Positions 12,448 to 20,018 are shown, numbered from the stretch's first letter. The stretch is 64,000 nt of DNA from Helicobacteraceae bacterium (GCA_015493495.1 WGDB01000033.1:7479-71478); one strand, 5' to 3'. A program made the numbers and translations. The notes: generated from the sequence alone by a model not told the origin.

Positions 12448-12561
12448 ACATTTCTAATACATCATACGCTTTTAACCATACCTTGATATTCTTTCAACAC
12501 TTGTTAGAAATATGCAATAATAATATTGAGTTCATGAGTGTTCGCTCTACTTTTTAAGTAT

Positions 12562-12851
12562 GGGCACCTCTAAAAACCCTAGCCATCCTCAGCGCTAGAG
12601 AGGAGTTCACAATCAAGGCGACCTTTTGAAGCCCTAGCTGTAGCTAAGGCGAGAAAGGACAACGCCGAGTGTGGATTCCTCTCTAGTGCCCGAAGGGAGG
12701 GATAAAAAGAACGATCTCACACAAAACTTTTTATCCTCATAGCTACGGCTATGACTGACCAAAGGAAATGCCCTTGGGTGCAAAAAAGATTTTGCACGAT
12801 CTCATCTCTTTTTCTTCCCTCTGAGGATCGTTAGGGTTTTTAGAGGTGCCC
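12562..12851. mobile_element. 290-bp MITE-like / highly structured non-coding element with 31-bp terminal inverted repeats
   Basis: GGGCACCTCTAAAAACCCTAGCCATCCTCAG (12562-12592) matches the rc of 12821-12851 at 29 of 31 positions. GTAT on both flanks (12558-12561 and 12852-12855). Internal perfect stems: 12595-12604/12677-12686, 12700-12709/12727-12736, 12738-12753 and 12778-12797. No ORF. Confidence 0.5.
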
Positions 12852-12913
12852 GTATATAACTAGTATGTTTATAGCGCATGTATCCACTTTCCTTACTAAA
12901 CAAGTCGGGATAC

Positions 12914-13940: not shown

Positions 13941-14507
13941 ATGAACCCTACTGAAGCTACACTTCTTACTATAGCTATTATTTTATTACTGAGTCTTGTT
14001 ATCTATTCGATGGTCTCAAACAAAAGTGCTAAACCTAAATCAGCTGCATCTCAGGCGGAGTCGCTCAAAAACATGTTAGATGAGTATGTCAAAAAGTCTC
14101 AGGATAGAGAGATGACGATCTCAGAAAACTTTGAGGCTTCAAACATTGTAATCCCTACCAAACAATATGATATGTATGATAACTCCAGAGCAGTTGAAGA
14201 GATGGGGTTGACGCAAGAAGAGGCTGATGCTTTTGTAAATGACCTTGTGAAGGCCGTTCAAGCGGAAATACCAAAAATAGAAGCTTCTATCTTAAAGGGT
14301 GACTATAAAACTGTTGAAGAGATCGTCCATACGATTACAGGTTCATCTTCTACATTAGGTTCAGGCGGTGTCTCTTCTGCCTTGATCAGTTTTTATGCGG
14401 CAGTGCAGCATAGAGATAAGTTGGACGACCTTTATGTACACCTTCAAAACTTAAAATATTACATAGAAGAGTTAAATGAACAATCTGCTAAAGATGATCA
14501 TAGCTAA
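13941..14507 (+). CDS. Membrane-anchored HPt (histidine phosphotransfer) domain protein
   Basis: 188 aa. One N-terminal TM (LLTIAIILLLSLVIYSMV). C-terminal four-helix-like region with HTITGSSSTLGSGG, resembling the HxxKGSSxxLG phospho-His motif. Confidence 0.6.
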   Translation: MNPTEATLLTIAIILLLSLVIYSMVSNKSAKPKSAASQAESLKNMLDEYVKKSQDREMTISENFEASNIVIPTKQYDMYDNSRAVEEMGLTQEEADAFVNDLVKAVQAEIPKIEASILKGDYKTVEEIVHTITGSSSTLGSGGVSSALISFYAAVQHRDKLDDLYVHLQNLKYYIEELNEQSAKDDHS

Positions 14508-14682
14508 CAGTATAACACCCAAAGTCACTATTATAGTAGTGGTTTAAATCTCCCATTTTTTCCTAAATCACTATCTATATCCTCAAAACAGTAGCATTTA
14601 AATTAAGATAAATATAAACTGAGTAGAATGTACTATTAAATAAATTAATAGGTATTCCTAACTTTTATACTAAAGGACCGAT

Positions 14683-16083
14683 GTGGCAAAGAAGAAGAGA
14701 CACCTTGACCATGATGATGCACTGTTTGAACAGTACGATTTTGATGAGCTTAAAGAAGAGTTAAATATTGTCGCTTTGGCAAAAATGCAGGCAAGAGAAA
14801 ACAAGCCTTTAACAGATGCGACACACCTTGACGCTAACGAGCAGAAGATCACCTCGTTTTTTCAAGACAGACTCTCTTCGGTCAAGCAAGAGATCTATAA
14901 AAAAGTAGCCTCTTATGATCACATGGCCATGCGTGTGAGTGATATCACTACCATACTGGCAGAAGCCAAATATGCCAGTGAAGAGTTTGTTCAAAACATC
15001 ACGACCTTTCAAGAGAGTGCCAAACAGCGTATTAAAGAGATCAAACACGAGTATAGTGTCCGTAAAGATGATCTGGAGAAGTTTAAGGCTAAAAATAACA
15101 TCACACGTGAGGCCTCTTACCCTAACTCCAAGATCCTCTATATCGGGATTATTATGGTGATCTTGCTGAGTGAGACCTCTCTTAATGCGTACTTCTTTGC
15201 AAAGGGCAATGAATTAGGACTTATTGGTGGTGCTGCGCAAGCACTTATCATCTCTCTTATTAATGTGGTCTCTGCATTTTTCTTGGGTGGATATCTAGTG
15301 AAAAAACTCAACCTCGTGAAGAAGTCTCCTGTTCTTAAGTATGGGGTACTTGCGGCACTATTGAGTTTCGCTACCGTTATCCTCTTTTTCAATCTTTTGG
15401 TAGGACACCTTCGTGTACAGTTGGGTATAGATCCAGATGCGGCTTATGTCGAAGCGATCAAGACCTTTATGGCAGCTCCATTTGGACTTAATGAATTTGA
15501 CTCCATCATCTTGGTCATCGTTGGACTGCTTTCATTTCTTATCGCCTTTACAGACTTCTATAAAATGGACGATGAATATCCTGGTTATGGTCAGTTGGAT
15601 CGTAAATATCAAGACGCACTTATAGACTTTAATGAGCTTAAAGAGGAACTTCTTGAAGAGATAGAGGGCAGTTCCAAGTCTATTTTGAACAAGTTGGAGA
15701 CCCAGCAGATGACCTCTAAGGTGATTATGCAAGAGTTGATGGAAGTACCGATCTTTAGACAAAAGTTGCAAGATCATGCGCGTGAGTATTTTAGATATCT
15801 TAATAACACCTATGGTTCAATGATCAGCCTCTATCGTGAGATCAACAATGACAACAGAACAGATGACGCACCAGCATACTTTAATGAACCTGTCTCTCTT
15901 GAAAATAGTGAAGAGATCGAGATCGTTGATGATCAGTTTAAAAAAGATCTTCAAGAGTATCAAAAAGCGGTATTGGAACTGCCACATATTATTGGTGAAC
16001 AAAAACTGAAGATCAATACAACACTCAAAAGTGTTATAGCAGAACTGGGAAGTGAGTCAGACATGGAACTAAACAATGGGTAG
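14683..16083 (+). CDS. P1: 4-TM protein flanked by two long helical/coiled-coil regions, unknown function
   Basis: 466 aa. GTG start 5 nt after AAAGGA. Charged helical N-terminus (about 150 aa). TM segments around aa 151-172, 178-206, 217-241 and 272-292. DDEYPGYG right after TM4, then about 170 aa of helical C-terminus. Confidence 0.75.
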   Translation: MAKKKRHLDHDDALFEQYDFDELKEELNIVALAKMQARENKPLTDATHLDANEQKITSFFQDRLSSVKQEIYKKVASYDHMAMRVSDITTILAEAKYASEEFVQNITTFQESAKQRIKEIKHEYSVRKDDLEKFKAKNNITREASYPNSKILYIGIIMVILLSETSLNAYFFAKGNELGLIGGAAQALIISLINVVSAFFLGGYLVKKLNLVKKSPVLKYGVLAALLSFATVILFFNLLVGHLRVQLGIDPDAAYVEAIKTFMAAPFGLNEFDSIILVIVGLLSFLIAFTDFYKMDDEYPGYGQLDRKYQDALIDFNELKEELLEEIEGSSKSILNKLETQQMTSKVIMQELMEVPIFRQKLQDHAREYFRYLNNTYGSMISLYREINNDNRTDDAPAYFNEPVSLENSEEIEIVDDQFKKDLQEYQKAVLELPHIIGEQKLKINTTLKSVIAELGSESDMELNNG

Positions 16084-16879
16084 GCGTTCAAAAAAGGAAA
16101 AAAGTGACAAAATAGGCTACGTGCTTATTGCTGTCGTTGTGATGATACTTGGCTCTATTGCTGTGTTTATAGCGATGAACCGTGGAGTAGAAGTTGACAA
16201 AGAGAGTATGTGCCGTCTGGATGGTGCTTTTGACAGACACGTTATTATCTTGGACATGACTGACAACTACAATGCCATACAGGTACAGCAGATCAAACAT
16301 ATTATAGAGAACATCGTAGACAACCTGGCGGTGAGTGAGCAGTTGCAACTCTATTTTATTGATGCAACACTGCCAAGCGAGATACAGCCACAACTTTTGT
16401 TATGTAATCCTGGTGACGGTGCGGGAAAAAGTGAGATCTATTCAAACCCTAAACTCTTTAAAAAGCGTTGGGAAAAACGTTTTCATGCCCCTTTAAAGGC
16501 TAAGATGATGGCCTTGACGGGTGACTATACAAGTACGACATCCCCTATTTTAGAGACGATACAAGCGGTTAATAACATTGCATTTCCTTATGTAAGAGAT
16601 GAAAATAGACATTATAAGATCACCTTGATCTCCGACATGATACAAAACTCTAAAGAGCTTTCATTTTTTAAAACACAACGTGCGTCATTGACTCACTTTG
16701 TAGACTCACCTGGATATGTAAAAATTCGTACGGATCTTCAAGATATCGATGTAGATATTGTGATTGTACGACGTGACAAATATGAGTCACTGCAGTCACG
16801 AGACTATGTTGACTTCTGGGTAGATGTTTTGAGTAGTATGAATGCCAATATCGATAATATTAAGTTAACAGACGGATAA
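16076..16879 (+). CDS. P2: N-terminally TM-anchored alpha/beta (vWA-like) domain protein
   Basis: 267 aa. ATG overlaps the P1 stop by 8 nt. TM at aa 14-34. Strand/loop pattern HVIILDMTDN ... TSPILETIQAV ... ITLISDMIQNS resembles a degenerate vWA MIDAS layout. Confidence 0.7.
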   Translation: MGRRSKKEKSDKIGYVLIAVVVMILGSIAVFIAMNRGVEVDKESMCRLDGAFDRHVIILDMTDNYNAIQVQQIKHIIENIVDNLAVSEQLQLYFIDATLPSEIQPQLLLCNPGDGAGKSEIYSNPKLFKKRWEKRFHAPLKAKMMALTGDYTSTTSPILETIQAVNNIAFPYVRDENRHYKITLISDMIQNSKELSFFKTQRASLTHFVDSPGYVKIRTDLQDIDVDIVIVRRDKYESLQSRDYVDFWVDVLSSMNANIDNIKLTDG

Positions 16880-16882
16880 AAG

Positions 16883-18451
16883 ATGAAAAAAAGAAGTTCA
16901 AACGGTGGATTCATGGCGAATATACAGATAAAGTATCTGTTTTTGATCGCTTTAGTGTTAGGTGTAGCCTTTATCTTGATGGGTGGTTTTATGAACAAGC
17001 CTTACCTCTCTGTTGTACTAACTGTTATGGCGATGATCTCTTACTTTTTGATAGGTCAAAAGATCGTTGAACGTGAACTGCTGACCAATGAGCAGTTTGC
17101 AGACAGTAACTACTACCTTGGTTTTCTTTTTACCTTGGTCTCATTGGCAAGTTCACTCTATATTTTGTCAAGTGGAAATATGCAAGGGGGACTCCTAACC
17201 AGTCTTATCGGACAGTTTGGTATCTCTATCTCTACCACTATTGTAGGACTTTCACTGCGTATTTACCTCTTGAGCTTTAGTCCAAATATTGGCTCAAATA
17301 TTGAGAGTTTCAACCTTATGATCATGGAGAAGTTGCAGATGCTTAATGATCATATTGGTCACAGTATCGATCAGACAAAGACTTTTTCAAATGTTATTGA
17401 TGACAAAGTCGAACTTTTTATTGATAAGACATTAAAATCTGTAGAGTCTTATAATGAACGTCTTGTTGAGAGTCTCGACCAACATTCGGTTAACAATATA
17501 TTTGAAAAGATATATGCAGATATGGACATGATCCATAAAGAACAAGAGTCACGTATTAATGAGATCTATGAAAACATGACCAGCTACCACCTACGTTATG
17601 AAAAACAGAACCAAGCCTCAGCTAAAGCTTTTCAAGACTCTATTAAAGCCAGTGAAAAATGGATCAACGAGTTTAATGAGACGATGGGTGCTTCAGCTGG
17701 AAGTATCGCAAACTCTAATACTGAGATGCGTAAGGTCATACACAATTTTGATGACTTTGTCCGTGGTCTGCCTAAGCTTTTTGCAGAGGTAAATACACTG
17801 TTTGAACAGAGTTCCAAGACATTGACATCAGAGTTGCAAGAGCAAAATAAAGTCTTGATAGAGAGCTTTATAAAGCAAAAAGATATGCAAAACAAGATCT
17901 TGATCGAACGTGTCTTGGGTGAGAACCAGAAAATCATCGATAGCTTTATTACTAACGGAAGTGCTCAGAGCAATGAAGTCTTAGAGAAGTTAAACCAGAT
18001 GAATGAAGAGATCATCTCCAGTTTTATTCAGTCTCGTGAATCTGGTAATGAGAAGATCATCAATGATATTACTGTACTCAATAATAAAGTAATACAGTCT
18101 ATTGGTTCAAAAGCAGAGAGTGCCAATGCTAAAGTGGTAGATGCAATTATCACTTCGTCCACTAAAGTGCTTTCATCATTTGTCAACAGTCAAGATCAGA
18201 AAAATGAGCAGTTGATCCAGAAAATTGCTTTGGAAAACAGTCGCCTTGTGGACAAAATGGCAAAAGCAGTAGTGCAGACACAAACAACACCACAAGCACA
18301 GACTCCACAGCCACAGAGACGTGTGGCAACACCGCCATCAAGCGAAGAAGATCTTAAAGCGCAACCAACAGTGAAAGAACAACCAACTATAACACCAGCA
18401 GCGCCAAACAAGATGAAGGGCCATGGTAGTGTCAAACTACCAAAAAGCTAA
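16883..18451 (+). CDS. P3: MotA/ExbB/TolQ-like membrane core with long repeat-containing helical tail and Pro/Gln-rich C-terminus
   Basis: 522 aa. Starts 3 nt after the P2 stop. 4 TM in aa 15-130, with YLGFLFTLVSLASSL ... GISISTTIVGLSLRI. Tail of about 390 aa including 26-residue tandem repeats. C-terminal TTPQAQTPQPQRRVATPP. Confidence 0.75.
   Translation: MKKRSSNGGFMANIQIKYLFLIALVLGVAFILMGGFMNKPYLSVVLTVMAMISYFLIGQKIVERELLTNEQFADSNYYLGFLFTLVSLASSLYILSSGNMQGGLLTSLIGQFGISISTTIVGLSLRIYLLSFSPNIGSNIESFNLMIMEKLQMLNDHIGHSIDQTKTFSNVIDDKVELFIDKTLKSVESYNERLVESLDQHSVNNIFEKIYADMDMIHKEQESRINEIYENMTSYHLRYEKQNQASAKAFQDSIKASEKWINEFNETMGASAGSIANSNTEMRKVIHNFDDFVRGLPKLFAEVNTLFEQSSKTLTSELQEQNKVLIESFIKQKDMQNKILIERVLGENQKIIDSFITNGSAQSNEVLEKLNQMNEEIISSFIQSRESGNEKIINDITVLNNKVIQSIGSKAESANAKVVDAIITSSTKVLSSFVNSQDQKNEQLIQKIALENSRLVDKMAKAVVQTQTTPQAQTPQPQRRVATPPSSEEDLKAQPTVKEQPTITPAAPNKMKGHGSVKLPKS
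17846..18268 (+). repeat. Coding tandem repeats: five to six copies of a 26-residue unit in the P3 tail
   Basis: The N-x-x-[ILV]-[ILV]-x-S-[FI]-[IV] motif recurs at aa 322, 348, 374, 400, 426 and 452: NKVLIESFI, NQKIIDSFI, NEEIISSFI, NNKVIQSIG, STKVLSSFV, NSRLVDKMA. Each unit has a second half-motif (NKILIERV, NEVLEKL, NEKIINDI, NAKVVDAI, NEQLIQKI). Confidence 0.8.
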
Positions 18452-18465
18452 GGTAAGCGTAGCTG

Positions 18466-19494
18466 ATGCAATTTAATGAAAATGGAAACAATGACTTTTT
18501 ATTTGGGATCACCTTAACCGAGCTTATCTTGATGCTCTTTTTTCTACTATTGTTGATCTCAGCATTTATGAGTGCGGAAAAAGAGAGTATTATCACTAAG
18601 GTAGAAAAAGAGAACGCTCGGATAGTGGAAGAGAATCTTGATCTACAGTTAAAAAACAAGATATCCAAAAGCCTCTCAGAAGATATGATCAACTCTCTAT
18701 TGCACTTCAAACATGGTGAAGATAAAGAAGATGAAAAAGCCAAACAGATCTTTAAAGAGTTGAGTAATCAGACCAAGTTGATCGCTGAAAATAAAAAGCT
18801 TAAACGTCAAGTCGAGATGTATGAGGTCAATGAGAAACTTTTAAAGATGGATGAAGCGTTTAAAGTCCAACTGTCTCGAAAAGAGTCTCTACTGAAATCT
18901 ATAGAAGACCTTAACAGCAGTGAGGATCTTAAAGCACTTTTTACCAAACTCGAAAAGCTCGATAAAGAGCTTAAGTATGAAAAGAGCAAAGAGGACCGCC
19001 TGGAGATTGAGAACAAAAAACTCTCTGAACTTTTAAAAGCCTTTAGCAAAATGAGTAAAGATGAACTTTTGTATGCGCAAGACATCTTAAAAGGGCAGGT
19101 GAGTTACTTGACCCGCCGTCTTAATATGGGTGGAGGTAATGAACTGCCACCATGCTGGGCGAACCAAAAGAGTGGCAAGGCTGAATATATATTTACAGTG
19201 ACAATTGGAGAGAAGGCCCTTAAGGTGAAGCCAAGATGGCCAAAATATCGTGCTAAAGAGATGAAAAAGTATAAGATATCTCCTAAACTTTATAGACAAG
19301 AGGTGAGTGTAGATAAGTTTTTGGAGTTGACCAAAAATGTTTATAAAGATGCAGATAAAAATGAGTGTAAGCACTACCTCTATCTTTATGATGAGGCAGA
19401 GACGAAATTTGGTTATAAAGACAAACGTCTGAAGTTAGAAAACTATTATTACAAATATGAAAATGGATCTAGACGACGTAAAGGGCACCTCTAA
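18466..19494 (+). CDS. P4: MotB/ExbD-like N-terminal TM, coiled coil, and C-terminal domain of unknown fold
   Basis: 342 aa. N-terminus NDFLFGITLTELILMLFFLLLLISAFMS has a single TM with acidic E19. About 170 aa of K/E-rich coiled coil. C-terminal roughly 115 aa contains ELPPCW and two Cys (C230, C301). No OmpA-type NxxLSxxRA motif. Confidence 0.75.
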   Translation: MQFNENGNNDFLFGITLTELILMLFFLLLLISAFMSAEKESIITKVEKENARIVEENLDLQLKNKISKSLSEDMINSLLHFKHGEDKEDEKAKQIFKELSNQTKLIAENKKLKRQVEMYEVNEKLLKMDEAFKVQLSRKESLLKSIEDLNSSEDLKALFTKLEKLDKELKYEKSKEDRLEIENKKLSELLKAFSKMSKDELLYAQDILKGQVSYLTRRLNMGGGNELPPCWANQKSGKAEYIFTVTIGEKALKVKPRWPKYRAKEMKKYKISPKLYRQEVSVDKFLELTKNVYKDADKNECKHYLYLYDEAETKFGYKDKRLKLENYYYKYENGSRRRKGHL

Positions 19495-19496
19495 AA
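19483..19496. repeat. Solo copy of the 12562-12851 element terminus
   Basis: GGGCACCTCTAAAA is identical to 12562-12575 and to the rc of 12838-12851. It is followed by CCTTAGCC...TAGAGA, echoing CCCTAGCC...TAGAGA of the full element. It supplies the last codons and the stop of P4. Confidence 0.6.
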
Positions 19497-19514
19497 GGAT
19501 TAATCCTCCTTAGC

Positions 19515-20018
19515 CTAGAGAAAAACCTCTGATCTCTTTTGGATGATAGCCAAGGTGGCTTCAGCAGTTGAAGCGACTACGATGTCTATCATCATCAGGT
19601 TGTGTGAGAGACCAAAGTCTTCGATGATTTTCCCCTCTTGACAAAGTGTTGCATCAGAGCTAAGTACTTGTGCTGCCCTGACCCGCTCGATCATCTGGCT
19701 TCTGTCTTTTGCATAGGCAAATACCGGTTTGTTCAATGCTGTAGCATAACCTACCTCGTAAACTGTACCTGAGTCAGGTTCCAAGCCACGAAATGGGTTT
19801 AGGTTAGCCATGATGATATCTGCTTTTTGTATCAGTTTAATGTTGGCTTCTCTTATGGCTTTGGCTGTCTCATAAGCAGTTCCGTCAAAGTCGATCTCAT
19901 TGTCTAAAGGAAAGAGACCCTCAAATCCATACTGCCTACAGAGTTTTTTGAGTTGTGTACCTTGAGCTTTGGCATCACACTCAAAAACATCAGGTCCTGC
20001 AAGATAGATTTTTAGCAT
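19515..20018 (-). CDS. Nucleoside 2-deoxyribosyltransferase-like protein
   Basis: 167 aa. IYLAGPDVF N-terminal motif and EPDSGTVYEVGYA, characteristic of the PF05014-type fold. Confidence 0.8.
   Translation of the reverse strand: MLKIYLAGPDVFECDAKAQGTQLKKLCRQYGFEGLFPLDNEIDFDGTAYETAKAIREANIKLIQKADIIMANLNPFRGLEPDSGTVYEVGYATALNKPVFAYAKDRSQMIERVRAAQVLSSDATLCQEGKIIEDFGLSHNLMMIDIVVASTAEATLAIIQKRSEVFL

Follow-up and report, generated by a model that had tools for sequence, protein, structure and literature searches.

The 64,000-nt stretch of Helicobacteraceae DNA analysed here (GCA_015493495.1, WGDB01000033.1:7479-71478; the window) carries, at positions 14683-19494 of the + strand, four tightly packed co-directional open reading frames (ORFs) whose products, P1 to P4, belong to a widespread and apparently undescribed four-gene system. 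Our preferred reading, which we hold tentatively and with somewhat less than even confidence, is that P1-P4 form an inner-membrane machine of an undescribed family, built on a divergent MotA/MotB-type stator, that would serve in envelope surveillance or defence against invading DNA by a Zorya-like logic. Flagella, gliding, Ton/Tol transport and Zorya immunity are all powered by ion-driven 5:2 motors, and whenever a further set of partners has been found for such a motor, it has revealed a new coupling of membrane energy to work. The four genes form a translationally coupled unit: the start of P2 lies within the end of P1 by 8 nt, with gaps of 3 nt between P2 and P3 and of 14 nt between P3 and P4. 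This arrangement, first described in a first-pass annotation made from the sequence alone, was recovered in the ORF listing of the window, and the same four products resulted from independent gene calls on four public contigs; the window was assigned to a Sulfurimonadaceae metagenome-assembled genome (GCA_027061435.1; Helicobacteraceae at NCBI), and the terminator scan revealed no terminator-like site on the + strand inside the block.

The suggestion that the block matches no named system also held. Scans of P1-P4 against Pfam, NCBIfam and PADLOC gave no significant match, the sole PADLOC match being one to DruG at chance level, and no account of the cassette was found in the searchable literature (open-access papers and bioRxiv). 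On the plasmids pYEE1 of Paracoccus yeei and pRL11 of Rhizobium johnstonii 3841, the PGAP labels are "hypothetical protein" for three of the products and "OmpA family protein" for one. The cassette thus adds three families lacking a Pfam, NCBIfam or PADLOC model, namely P1, the vWA subtype of P2 and the PPCW end domain of P4, and occurs on plasmids and in hundreds of species, with culturable and genetically tractable hosts (Rhizobium johnstonii 3841, Paracoccus, Pseudomonas and Methylomarinum) among its carriers.

Conservation and distribution of the cassette

Related loci were collected by scanning 185,579 species genomes with the exact peptide YYLGFLFT from P3, which returned 146 species; the best 80 of these 146 loci were fetched. 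As the loci were seeded on this peptide, P3 residues Y77-T84 are invariant by ascertainment. A jackhmmer search on all locus ORFs showed P1-P2-P3-P4 in identical order in ~70 of ~75 non-redundant loci spread across phyla, a recurrence far above chance, which bears out the synteny of the four genes; the order was kept in nearly every locus long enough to show all four, and P4 follows directly after P3 in 84 of 88 loci. The cassette was found in Campylobacterota, Alpha-, Beta- and Gammaproteobacteria, Desulfobacterota, Nitrospirota, Bdellovibrionota and Melainabacteria (at least seven phyla or classes), with carriers including Methylococcaceae, Piscirickettsiaceae, Pseudomonas, many Rhodobacterales, Rhodospirillales and Sutterella as well as Thermodesulfobacteriota, Thermodesulfovibrionia, Bdellovibrionales and Obscuribacterales. 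Two "archaeal" matches, in metagenome-assembled genomes (MAGs) on contigs of 2-3 kb, may be binning errors. An exhaustive phmmer search of 1.84 billion representatives (50% identity clusters) assigned 1,668 clusters to the P1 family at E<=1e-10, with members nearly all of 450-500 aa and matching end to end. P3 homologues fall into ~50 Sulfurimonadaceae clusters, with more distant ones in Aliarcobacter butzleri and methanotrophic Gammaproteobacteria, where they are part of the same four-gene block (products of ~460-480, 266-271, 423-490 and 285-334 aa).

Outside the Sulfurimonadaceae lineage, the cassette behaves as accessory DNA. Using tblastn, it was located on 24 plasmids, 11 of them conjugative, from Rhizobium, Sinorhizobium, Paracoccus, Microvirga and Tistrella; it is strain-variable in A. 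butzleri, and it adjoins rve, DnaB, Y1 transposase and integrase genes. The 113 nearest flank ORFs include IS66, Mutator, IstB, resolvase and integrase genes as well as ~8 defence matches (HerA, PD-Lambda-1, Cas6, Cas2, UzuA, MADS and PDC-M15A). Clustering of the flank ORFs from 74 loci identified no fifth linked gene family (effector or immunity) beyond the synteny found within Sulfurimonadaceae. Exceptions to the four-gene layout are few: Acetobacteraceae (loci L038, L039, L045 and L057) possess a two-gene variant consisting of P3 and a PPCW-type P4, in which P1 and P2 are missing and the genes upstream, for an EamA-like transporter and an M20 peptidase, are unrelated, and Porticoccus has only a weak P2-like vWA protein.

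Two loci illustrate the proximity of transposases. In Methylomarinum vadi (L011:10752-11066) a gene for an IS200/IS605-type Y1 transposase lies directly after the cassette, and at L094:8752-11287 a Y1 transposase follows P1-P2 at the position where P3-P4 would be expected, which suggests a cassette broken by insertion of an insertion sequence (IS).

P3 and P4 as a stator-like pair

P3 has its N-terminus inside; hydropathy indicated three transmembrane (TM) helices, a fourth (~105-130) was inferred from a conserved motif, and the cytoplasmic loop between TM2 and TM3 comprises only ~20 aa. When the TM cores of 13 family members were compared with PF01618 (MotA_ExbB), 8 of the 13 matched (best E 5e-6), in line with the MotA/ExbB/TolQ-like signature read from the sequence in the first-pass annotation; a faint precomputed hit also falls on P0073. 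Against 5,027 PADLOC models, the cores touched only ZorA, and this marginally (E 0.002-0.016 in 3 of 13). Residues D74, T119, G122 and R126 are invariant independently of the seed peptide and S/T118 is conserved likewise, with T84 lying inside the seed and hence invariant by ascertainment. Placement of P3 in the MotA/ExbB superfamily is thus supported transitively by sequence comparison, with an architecture that is ZorA-like but with P3 apparently not a member of the ZorA family. Hydropathy and all-alpha profile matches also agree with the predicted long helical tail behind the core: a full-length P3 profile returned from the PDB only all-alpha coiled-coil noise (apolipoproteins, methyl-accepting chemotaxis protein (MCP) signalling modules and designed bundles), whilst the TM core alone gave only chance matches to bacteriorhodopsin. 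The length of the tail ranges from ~100 to 520 aa among homologues and lineages.

P4 consists of a short N-terminus (usually basic in homologues), a TM helix at residues 13-31, a periplasmic coiled coil at ~32-220 (~190 aa) and a compact end domain. Glu19, near the cytoplasmic end of the TM helix, is Glu in 73 of 73 aligned homologues, in agreement with the MotB-like TM helix with an acidic residue originally noted. MotB D32 and ExbD D25 are TM carboxylates at a comparable position. ZorB D26 is likewise a TM carboxylate near the cytoplasmic end (10.1101/2023.12.18.572097). We take P3 and P4 for the A- and B-subunits of one pair on the grounds of the PF01618 matches of the family cores, the marginal contact with ZorA, the position of single-TM P4 with its invariant Glu downstream of P3, and the presence of an OmpA domain in the P4 homologues of 39 of 74 cassettes.

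The OmpA domain of these homologues occupies the position that in the window's P4 is taken by the end domain, which we refer to as PPCW. An AlphaFold2 model of P4 (predicted local distance difference test score, pLDDT, 76) shows long helices at 17-220 and a compact domain at ~225-332 with pLDDT ~86-93. Neither an OmpA sequence match nor an OmpA-like fold match was obtained for the window's P4, in keeping with the lack of an OmpA-type motif stated in the first-pass annotation, and PPCW gave no Foldseek match in the PDB or BFVD and no sequence match in Pfam or the PDB. Its conserved positions are only Gly, two Cys, Pro, Trp and two Phe, with both Cys (230/301 in P4) invariant. Because PPCW and OmpA are mutually exclusive, never occurring together in one P4 across the 74 non-redundant loci, PPCW is read from sequence as an alternative to OmpA: a putative new periplasmic module for anchoring or binding, stabilised by a disulfide. 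We do not read it as an enzyme, as its charged residues are not conserved. We also considered PPCW as a divergent GIY-YIG-like nuclease (from the beta-beta-alpha...beta-alpha order and the ExxFYK motif) and rejected this: the putative catalytic Tyr, Arg, His and Glu residues are not conserved and there was no Pfam, PDB or Foldseek support.

Several minor features of these two proteins were observed. The P3 tail displays the motif (I/L/V)(I/L)xSF(I/V) at residues 325, 351, 377 and 429 (window positions 17855-18190) together with NxK(I/V)(I/V)-related units every 13 or 26 residues, an internal repeat structure. Some P3 homologues are labelled "methyl-accepting chemotaxis protein" in the plasmid records CP053208.2 and NZ_CP023066.1, probably a mis-annotation arising from the long Ala/Gln/Ser-rich helical tail. 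In a Piscirickettsiaceae MAG (L025:7989-10807) P3 is only 234 aa long and almost tail-less, and the P4-like protein has 705 aa with no recognisable C-terminal domain.

The partner proteins P2 and P1

P2 is anchored by a single TM helix (residues 16-34 in the hydropathy scan; N-terminus inside) and carries a soluble domain at ~45-267. No Pfam vWA model matched P2 and its sequence profile found no match in the PDB. Its AlphaFold2 model (pLDDT 89.1, pTM 0.83) gave 64 Foldseek matches in the PDB at E<=1e-3, the top entries all being vWA or I-domains, with BatB (3ibs, 2.8e-6), integrin I-domains and the Rpn10 vWA domain among them and the top ones at a probability of 1.00. On this model, the soluble domain adopts the vWA (Rossmann-like alpha/beta) fold, in agreement with the TM-anchored vWA-like domain of the first-pass annotation. 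Positions C46, C110, D60-x-T62-D63, S156-P157 and S186-D187 are invariant or nearly so, which amounts to a putative, modified or degenerate site of the metal ion-dependent adhesion site (MIDAS) type (DxTD; canonical DxSxS...T...D), and Cys46 and Cys110 likely form a disulfide. The N-in topology, the conserved Cys pairs and the OmpA domains of P4 homologues place both the P2 domain and the helical part of P4 in the periplasm. Thus, of the earlier description of all four products as membrane proteins with long cytoplasmic helices, the first half stands, as TM helices are present in all four, but the P2 domain and P4 helices lie on the other side of the membrane. In a metagenome contig (ERZ1760238; L096:372-1742), a P2 homologue with a C-terminal TonB_C fusion (PF03544) was found, with a C-terminal fragment of P1 upstream and no P3 or P4 after it on the 2.7-kb contig.

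A tethered periplasmic domain beside a stator-like pair also invites a different explanation, Ton/Tol-like force transduction for a housekeeping envelope task: P3:P4 would energise P2 to pull or hold an outer-layer partner in outer-membrane tethering, an import step or surface adhesion, with P1 as a regulator or scaffold and nucleases as a lineage-specific add-on. TM-tethered vWA proteins near TolQR-like motors have indeed been proposed as force transducers (PMC12204202), and the TonB_C fusion of one P2 homologue, the vertical conservation of the Sulfurimonadaceae cassette among housekeeping and envelope-glycosylation genes and the lack of a nuclease in 48 of 74 cassettes all fit such a role. 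However, the P2 TM helix exhibits no conserved polar residue in the 22- and 39-sequence alignments, neither a His/SHLS-type motif nor an Asp; clustering of the flank ORFs linked no TonB-dependent transporter, Pal-like lipoprotein or adhesin to the cassette; neither ExbB nor TolQ has anything that corresponds to the long cytoplasmic tail of P3; and the patchy, plasmid-borne, IS-associated distribution with its repeated nuclease swaps (see below) is atypical for housekeeping machinery. We consider this explanation rather unlikely, though it retains appreciable weight.

P1 contains four TM helices (hydropathy scan) flanked by an N-arm of 148 aa and a C-arm of 176 aa, both helical and both cytoplasmic by the positive-inside rule; the earlier picture of a 4-TM protein with two arms of ~150 aa and of no known family is therefore unchanged, profile searches giving no match in Pfam or the PDB. 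In P1, E164 and N168 (TM1), G179 and G183 of the GLLGG loop, N194 (TM2) and R244 of the AHYRD motif are invariant in 69 of 69 sequences, as are N388, R392, P397 and F400 in the C-arm, with H242 present in 65 of 69 and a DDPYPGYG motif at 297-302 nearly invariant. From this intramembrane polar conservation we infer that P1 would have an active role, for example as an ion path or relay, rather than being a passive scaffold. The GLLGG motif led us to consider P1 as a second MotA/ExbB-like subunit, which was rejected following hhalign comparison with TolQ/ExbB/MotA and P3 (E 0.15-0.16).

The same residues bear on a non-motor explanation, in which the cassette would encode a static scaffold in the membrane or an ion channel that responds to stress (a PspA/MscS-like role in envelope stress) and the MotA/ExbB likeness would be a remnant. 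The weak similarity of the window's P3 to MotA/ExbB, the retention by Acetobacteraceae of just P3 and P4 and the invariant intramembrane Glu/Asn network of P1, which could form a separate ion path, are compatible with this. We nonetheless regard it as very improbable: the residues expected of an ion-coupled pair (P4 Glu19 and P3 T119, G122 and R126) are invariant across phyla, and the canonical A-then-B order and OmpA anchor have been kept, with no obvious role in a passive scaffold.

Nuclease modules on P4 of related cassettes

The C-terminus of P4 is modular. Across the 74 non-redundant loci it consists of PPCW in 33, of OmpA only in 15, of OmpA fused to SNase in 14 and of OmpA fused to GmrSD_C (HNH-type) in 6; in a further 4 an OmpA-type P4 is accompanied by a separate adjacent SNase gene, and 2 are unclassified. 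Two loci outside the 74 (L093 and L095) also combine OmpA with an adjacent SNase gene. The statement of the first-pass annotation that no nuclease is present is thus true of this copy but does not extend to its relatives. In the fused SNase domains, the equivalents of D21, R35, D40, E43 and R87 of staphylococcal nuclease are intact and four extra cysteines are present; the GmrSD_C matches reach 44-52 bits, the cut-off being 23. Aliarcobacter has a gene for Endonuclease_1 two genes downstream of the cassette. Given that they lie C-terminal to the OmpA domain, the fused nucleases should be periplasmic.

In a neighbour-joining tree of concatenated P1+P2 (calculated without bootstrap), SNase-fused, SNase-adjacent, GmrSD_C-fused and nuclease-less forms are interleaved among sister taxa, and at least two replacements between OmpA and PPCW are apparent. 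In conflict systems, effector modules show this pattern of unrelated nucleases displacing one another again and again at a single site, and by this analogy the nuclease swapping on P4 looks effector-like. That unrelated nucleases have repeatedly become fused to a B-subunit at its periplasmic end is, to our knowledge, unprecedented for this motor family, and these nuclease-on-stator fusions provide a testable hypothesis on the function of the cassette.

A third explanation takes the nucleases as the purpose of the machine: periplasmic DNA processing or scavenging, with the wall-anchored P4 nuclease degrading extracellular, transforming or gene transfer agent DNA that reaches the periplasm, for nutrition or the gating of gene transfer, and the motor serving to position or activate it. 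Among extracytoplasmic DNases, enzymes of the SNase and Endonuclease_1 types are typical, the fused SNase retains its catalytic residues and has extra cysteines, and the forms with a nuclease cluster in Rhodobacterales, which are known for gene transfer agents delivering DNA to the periplasm. Yet the 33 PPCW and 15 OmpA-only cassettes, that of the window included, carry no nuclease and would be left unexplained, as would the need of a simple DNase for P1, P2 and a long-tailed stator, and no competence or phosphate-regulon genes are linked among the flank ORFs; we thus judge this explanation quite improbable.

One locus carries additional nuclease genes: in the metagenome contig L095 (5864-7686 and 12632-13309), two tandem HNH_2 genes precede the cassette, a translationally coupled SNase gene comes after it and a phage-type integrase lies further on, a setting rich in genes for nucleases and mobile elements.

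Proposed mechanism

In the surveillance or defence machine that we favour, P3 (A) would surround a P4 dimer (B) at 5:2, by analogy with MotAB, ExbBD and ZorAB, and ions would pass P4 Glu19 and a Thr/Ser ring of P3 (T84, S/T118-T119). The coiled coil of P4 would span the periplasm and its end domain, PPCW here or OmpA in relatives, would dock to the wall or outer layers, and docking would license a turn or shift of the cytoplasmic tail of P3. P1 and P2 would act as obligate partners, coupling a periplasmic binding event to the motor and the cytoplasmic side. In many relatives the output would be the periplasmic SNase or HNH nuclease on P4; in the copy of the window, which has no nuclease, P1 or the tail of P3 would provide it.

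Several observations weigh against this. The locus sample is biased by the single-peptide seed and by the choice of the best 80 of 146 loci. With regard to the stator, the window's own P3 gave no PF01618 match. Using hhalign against E. coli TolQ/ExbB/MotA, P3 residues 70-125 were placed on the TolQ 132-188 hairpin, with YYLGFLFTL paired with PYIGLFGTVWGI and TTIVGL with ATAIGL, at an E of 0.056, a weak value that is partly due to a template of three sequences. The carboxylate of P4 is Glu and not the usual Asp, and P4 showed no profile similarity to E. coli TolR/ExbD/MotB beyond the TM helix. With regard to defence, PADLOC found nothing for P1, P2 or P4, and relatives are absent from phage genomes and from IMG/VR with its 2.9 million viral contigs. 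The neighbours in this genome are housekeeping genes, in a flank arrangement common to 11-12 Sulfurimonadaceae species, and elsewhere the remaining nearest flank ORFs are mostly metabolic. The window's cassette and all 33 PPCW-type cassettes lack a nuclease, and a periplasmic nuclease meets phage DNA only if this is exposed during entry.

A related proposal, which we consider unlikely, is that the cassette is an immune or gatekeeping machine driven by the proton-motive force and acting in the periplasm, in which the wall-docked P3:P4 stator and P2 as a vWA sensor would detect a breach of the envelope or the entry of foreign DNA; the response would be delivered by the nuclease on the stator arm (Rhodobacterales-type) or, in nuclease-less copies, by P1 as effector or relay. 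If this is true, no earlier defence would be known to attack invading DNA ahead of its arrival in the cytoplasm, and no earlier 5:2 motor to carry an enzymatic effector on its B-subunit.

Comparison with characterised systems

Judged by sequence, the cassette would work most like Zorya, yet it fails membership of Zorya on both profiles and effectors. Common to both are an A-subunit of the MotA/ExbB superfamily whose C-terminal cytoplasmic helical tail is long and varies in length, a single-TM B-subunit with a carboxylate and a disulfide-containing periplasmic anchor (OmpA-like in many relatives of P4), an occurrence restricted to diderms and an association with nucleases. In contrast, P3 only grazes the ZorA hidden Markov models, and full-length P3 and P4 have no PADLOC match at E<=1; P4 has Glu in place of Asp and a periplasmic coiled coil of ~190 aa; the genes run in the order P1-P2-A-B and include two obligate membrane partners missing from Zorya; and no ZorC/D/E/F/G homologue is present in the cassette (PADLOC; flanks of the 74 loci). 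The nucleases differ in their location as well, those of the cassette being on the periplasmic end of the B-subunit whereas those of Zorya are soluble, cytoplasmic and recruited by the tail.

A new class of vWA "force transducers" beside TolQR-like motors, function unknown, has been put forward (PMC12204202, Mol Biol Evol 2025), comprising families with the order TPR-tolQ-tolR-tolR-vWA and a TonB-like SHLS/His TM motif as well as another family of tolQ with paired vWA proteins (TPH-vWA), in which an Asp in the TM helix of the latter replaces TolR. The cassette is like them in encoding, next to a MotA/ExbB/TolQ-type motor, a periplasmic vWA protein tethered to the inner membrane, but differs in the absence of a conserved polar residue from the P2 TM helix, the separate MotB-like P4, the long-tailed A-subunit and the additional P1. 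Similarly, adjacent A/B genes plus a third single-TM protein with a periplasmic globular domain are reminiscent of ExbBD-TonB and TolQRA-Pal; however, the window encodes no TonB_C or TolA-III domain, the SHLS motif is absent, neither an outer-membrane receptor nor Pal is linked, and the B-subunit of the cassette appears wall-anchored like MotB with a long coiled coil, whilst ExbD and TolR are not wall-anchored. As it has neither a TonB_C/TolA-III domain nor a linked outer-membrane partner, we do not assign the cassette to the Ton/Tol systems.

MotAB and PomAB resemble the cassette in their 4-TM A-subunit, the A-then-B gene order and the OmpA-type peptidoglycan-binding domain of many P4 relatives. 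The short TM2-TM3 loop of P3, which leaves no torque-generating interface, the long C-terminal tail in its place and the absence of linked flagellar genes set the cassette apart; lacking both the interface and such genes, it is not a flagellar stator. With the Bat proteins the likeness is that BatB is the best structural match of P2 and that both are membrane-anchored vWA proteins, but this is at the level of the fold only (13% identity, TM-score ~0.4-0.5): MoxR, DUF58 and TPR partners are not found here, and P2 has the modified MIDAS (DxTD) and the conserved disulfide. The operons of FtsZ-like, vWA and OmpA proteins described by Makarova & Koonin 2010 (PMC2875224) were also considered and dismissed, there being no FtsZ-like or GTPase gene here.

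Layout of the locus and its surroundings

The coordinates of the features are compiled in Table 1. P1 is preceded by a Shine-Dalgarno sequence, AAAGGA, at 14672-14677, 5 nt ahead of its GTG; the leader gave no convincing sigma-70 promoter match in a scan that does not cover Campylobacterota promoters.

Table 1. Coordinates of the P1-P4 cassette and of adjoining features within the window.
Feature	Position	Strand	Description
Upstream leader	14508-14682	+	AT-rich, 175 nt; presumed operon promoter region, read from sequence
P1, orphan 4-TM protein	14683-16083	+	466 aa, GTG start
P1 regions		+	Residues 1-148 N-arm, 149-290 TM block, 291-466 C-arm (topology scan)
P1 TM block	15127-15552	+	Holds invariant polar residues
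P2, TM anchor plus predicted vWA fold	16076-16879	+	267 aa
P3, putative MotA/ExbB-superfamily A-subunit	16883-18451	+	522 aa
P3 4-TM core	16931-17272	+	Residues ~17-130; motifs EQFADSxYYLGFLFTLxSL and FGxAxxTTxxGLxxRIY
P3 helical tail	17273-18448	+	~390 aa; cytoplasmic; 13/26-residue repeats
P4, putative MotB-like B-subunit	18466-19494	+	342 aa
P4 Glu19 codon	18520-18522	+	Candidate ion-coupling carboxylate in TM helix
P4 PPCW domain	19126-19461	+	Residues ~221-332; GGxxxPPCW...CRHF...ExxFYKxE
Hpt-like protein gene	13941-14507	+	188 aa; N-terminal TM helix; weak Hpt match (PF01627, E 3e-4)
Nucleoside 2-deoxyribosyltransferase gene	19515-20018	-	PF05014; converges on P4, 20-nt gap
Inverted repeat	12548-12592 / 12821-12865		45-nt arms, 84% complementary, 228 nt between

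In the window the cassette is accompanied by coaBC, glmU and genes for a tRNA methyltransferase, a PAS-GGDEF-EAL protein, a DUF4395 protein, Rrf2 and the TM Hpt-like protein, and downstream by the convergent nucleoside 2-deoxyribosyltransferase gene, GtrA/GT2/PMT_2 glycosyltransferases and RecO. As to the defence-island setting raised in the first-pass annotation, the block is here not part of a recognisable mobile or defence island, and elsewhere the ~8 defence matches stand among mostly metabolic genes. The description of the segment as repeat-bracketed goes back to one 14-nt motif, GGGCACCTCTAAAA, which occurs three times in the 64 kb (12562, 12838 on the - strand, and 19483; expected 0.03). 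The GC content is not deviant and the flanks of the block are conserved in the 11-12 Sulfurimonadaceae species.

Found directly upstream of the cassette in each of the 11-12 Sulfurimonadaceae loci but in no others, the Hpt-like gene may encode a regulator specific to the lineage; its place is taken in a gammaproteobacterial MAG by genes for a histidine kinase and a sigma54 response regulator. The PF05014 gene, too, is found downstream of the cassette only in Sulfurimonadaceae loci. The inverted repeat is intergenic between the GGDEF-EAL and DUF4395 genes and holds two of the GGGCACCTCTAAAA copies, whilst the third (19483-19514) overlaps the stop codon of P4; the repeat could be a small element resembling a miniature inverted-repeat transposable element (MITE) or repetitive extragenic palindrome (REP), or a structured RNA.

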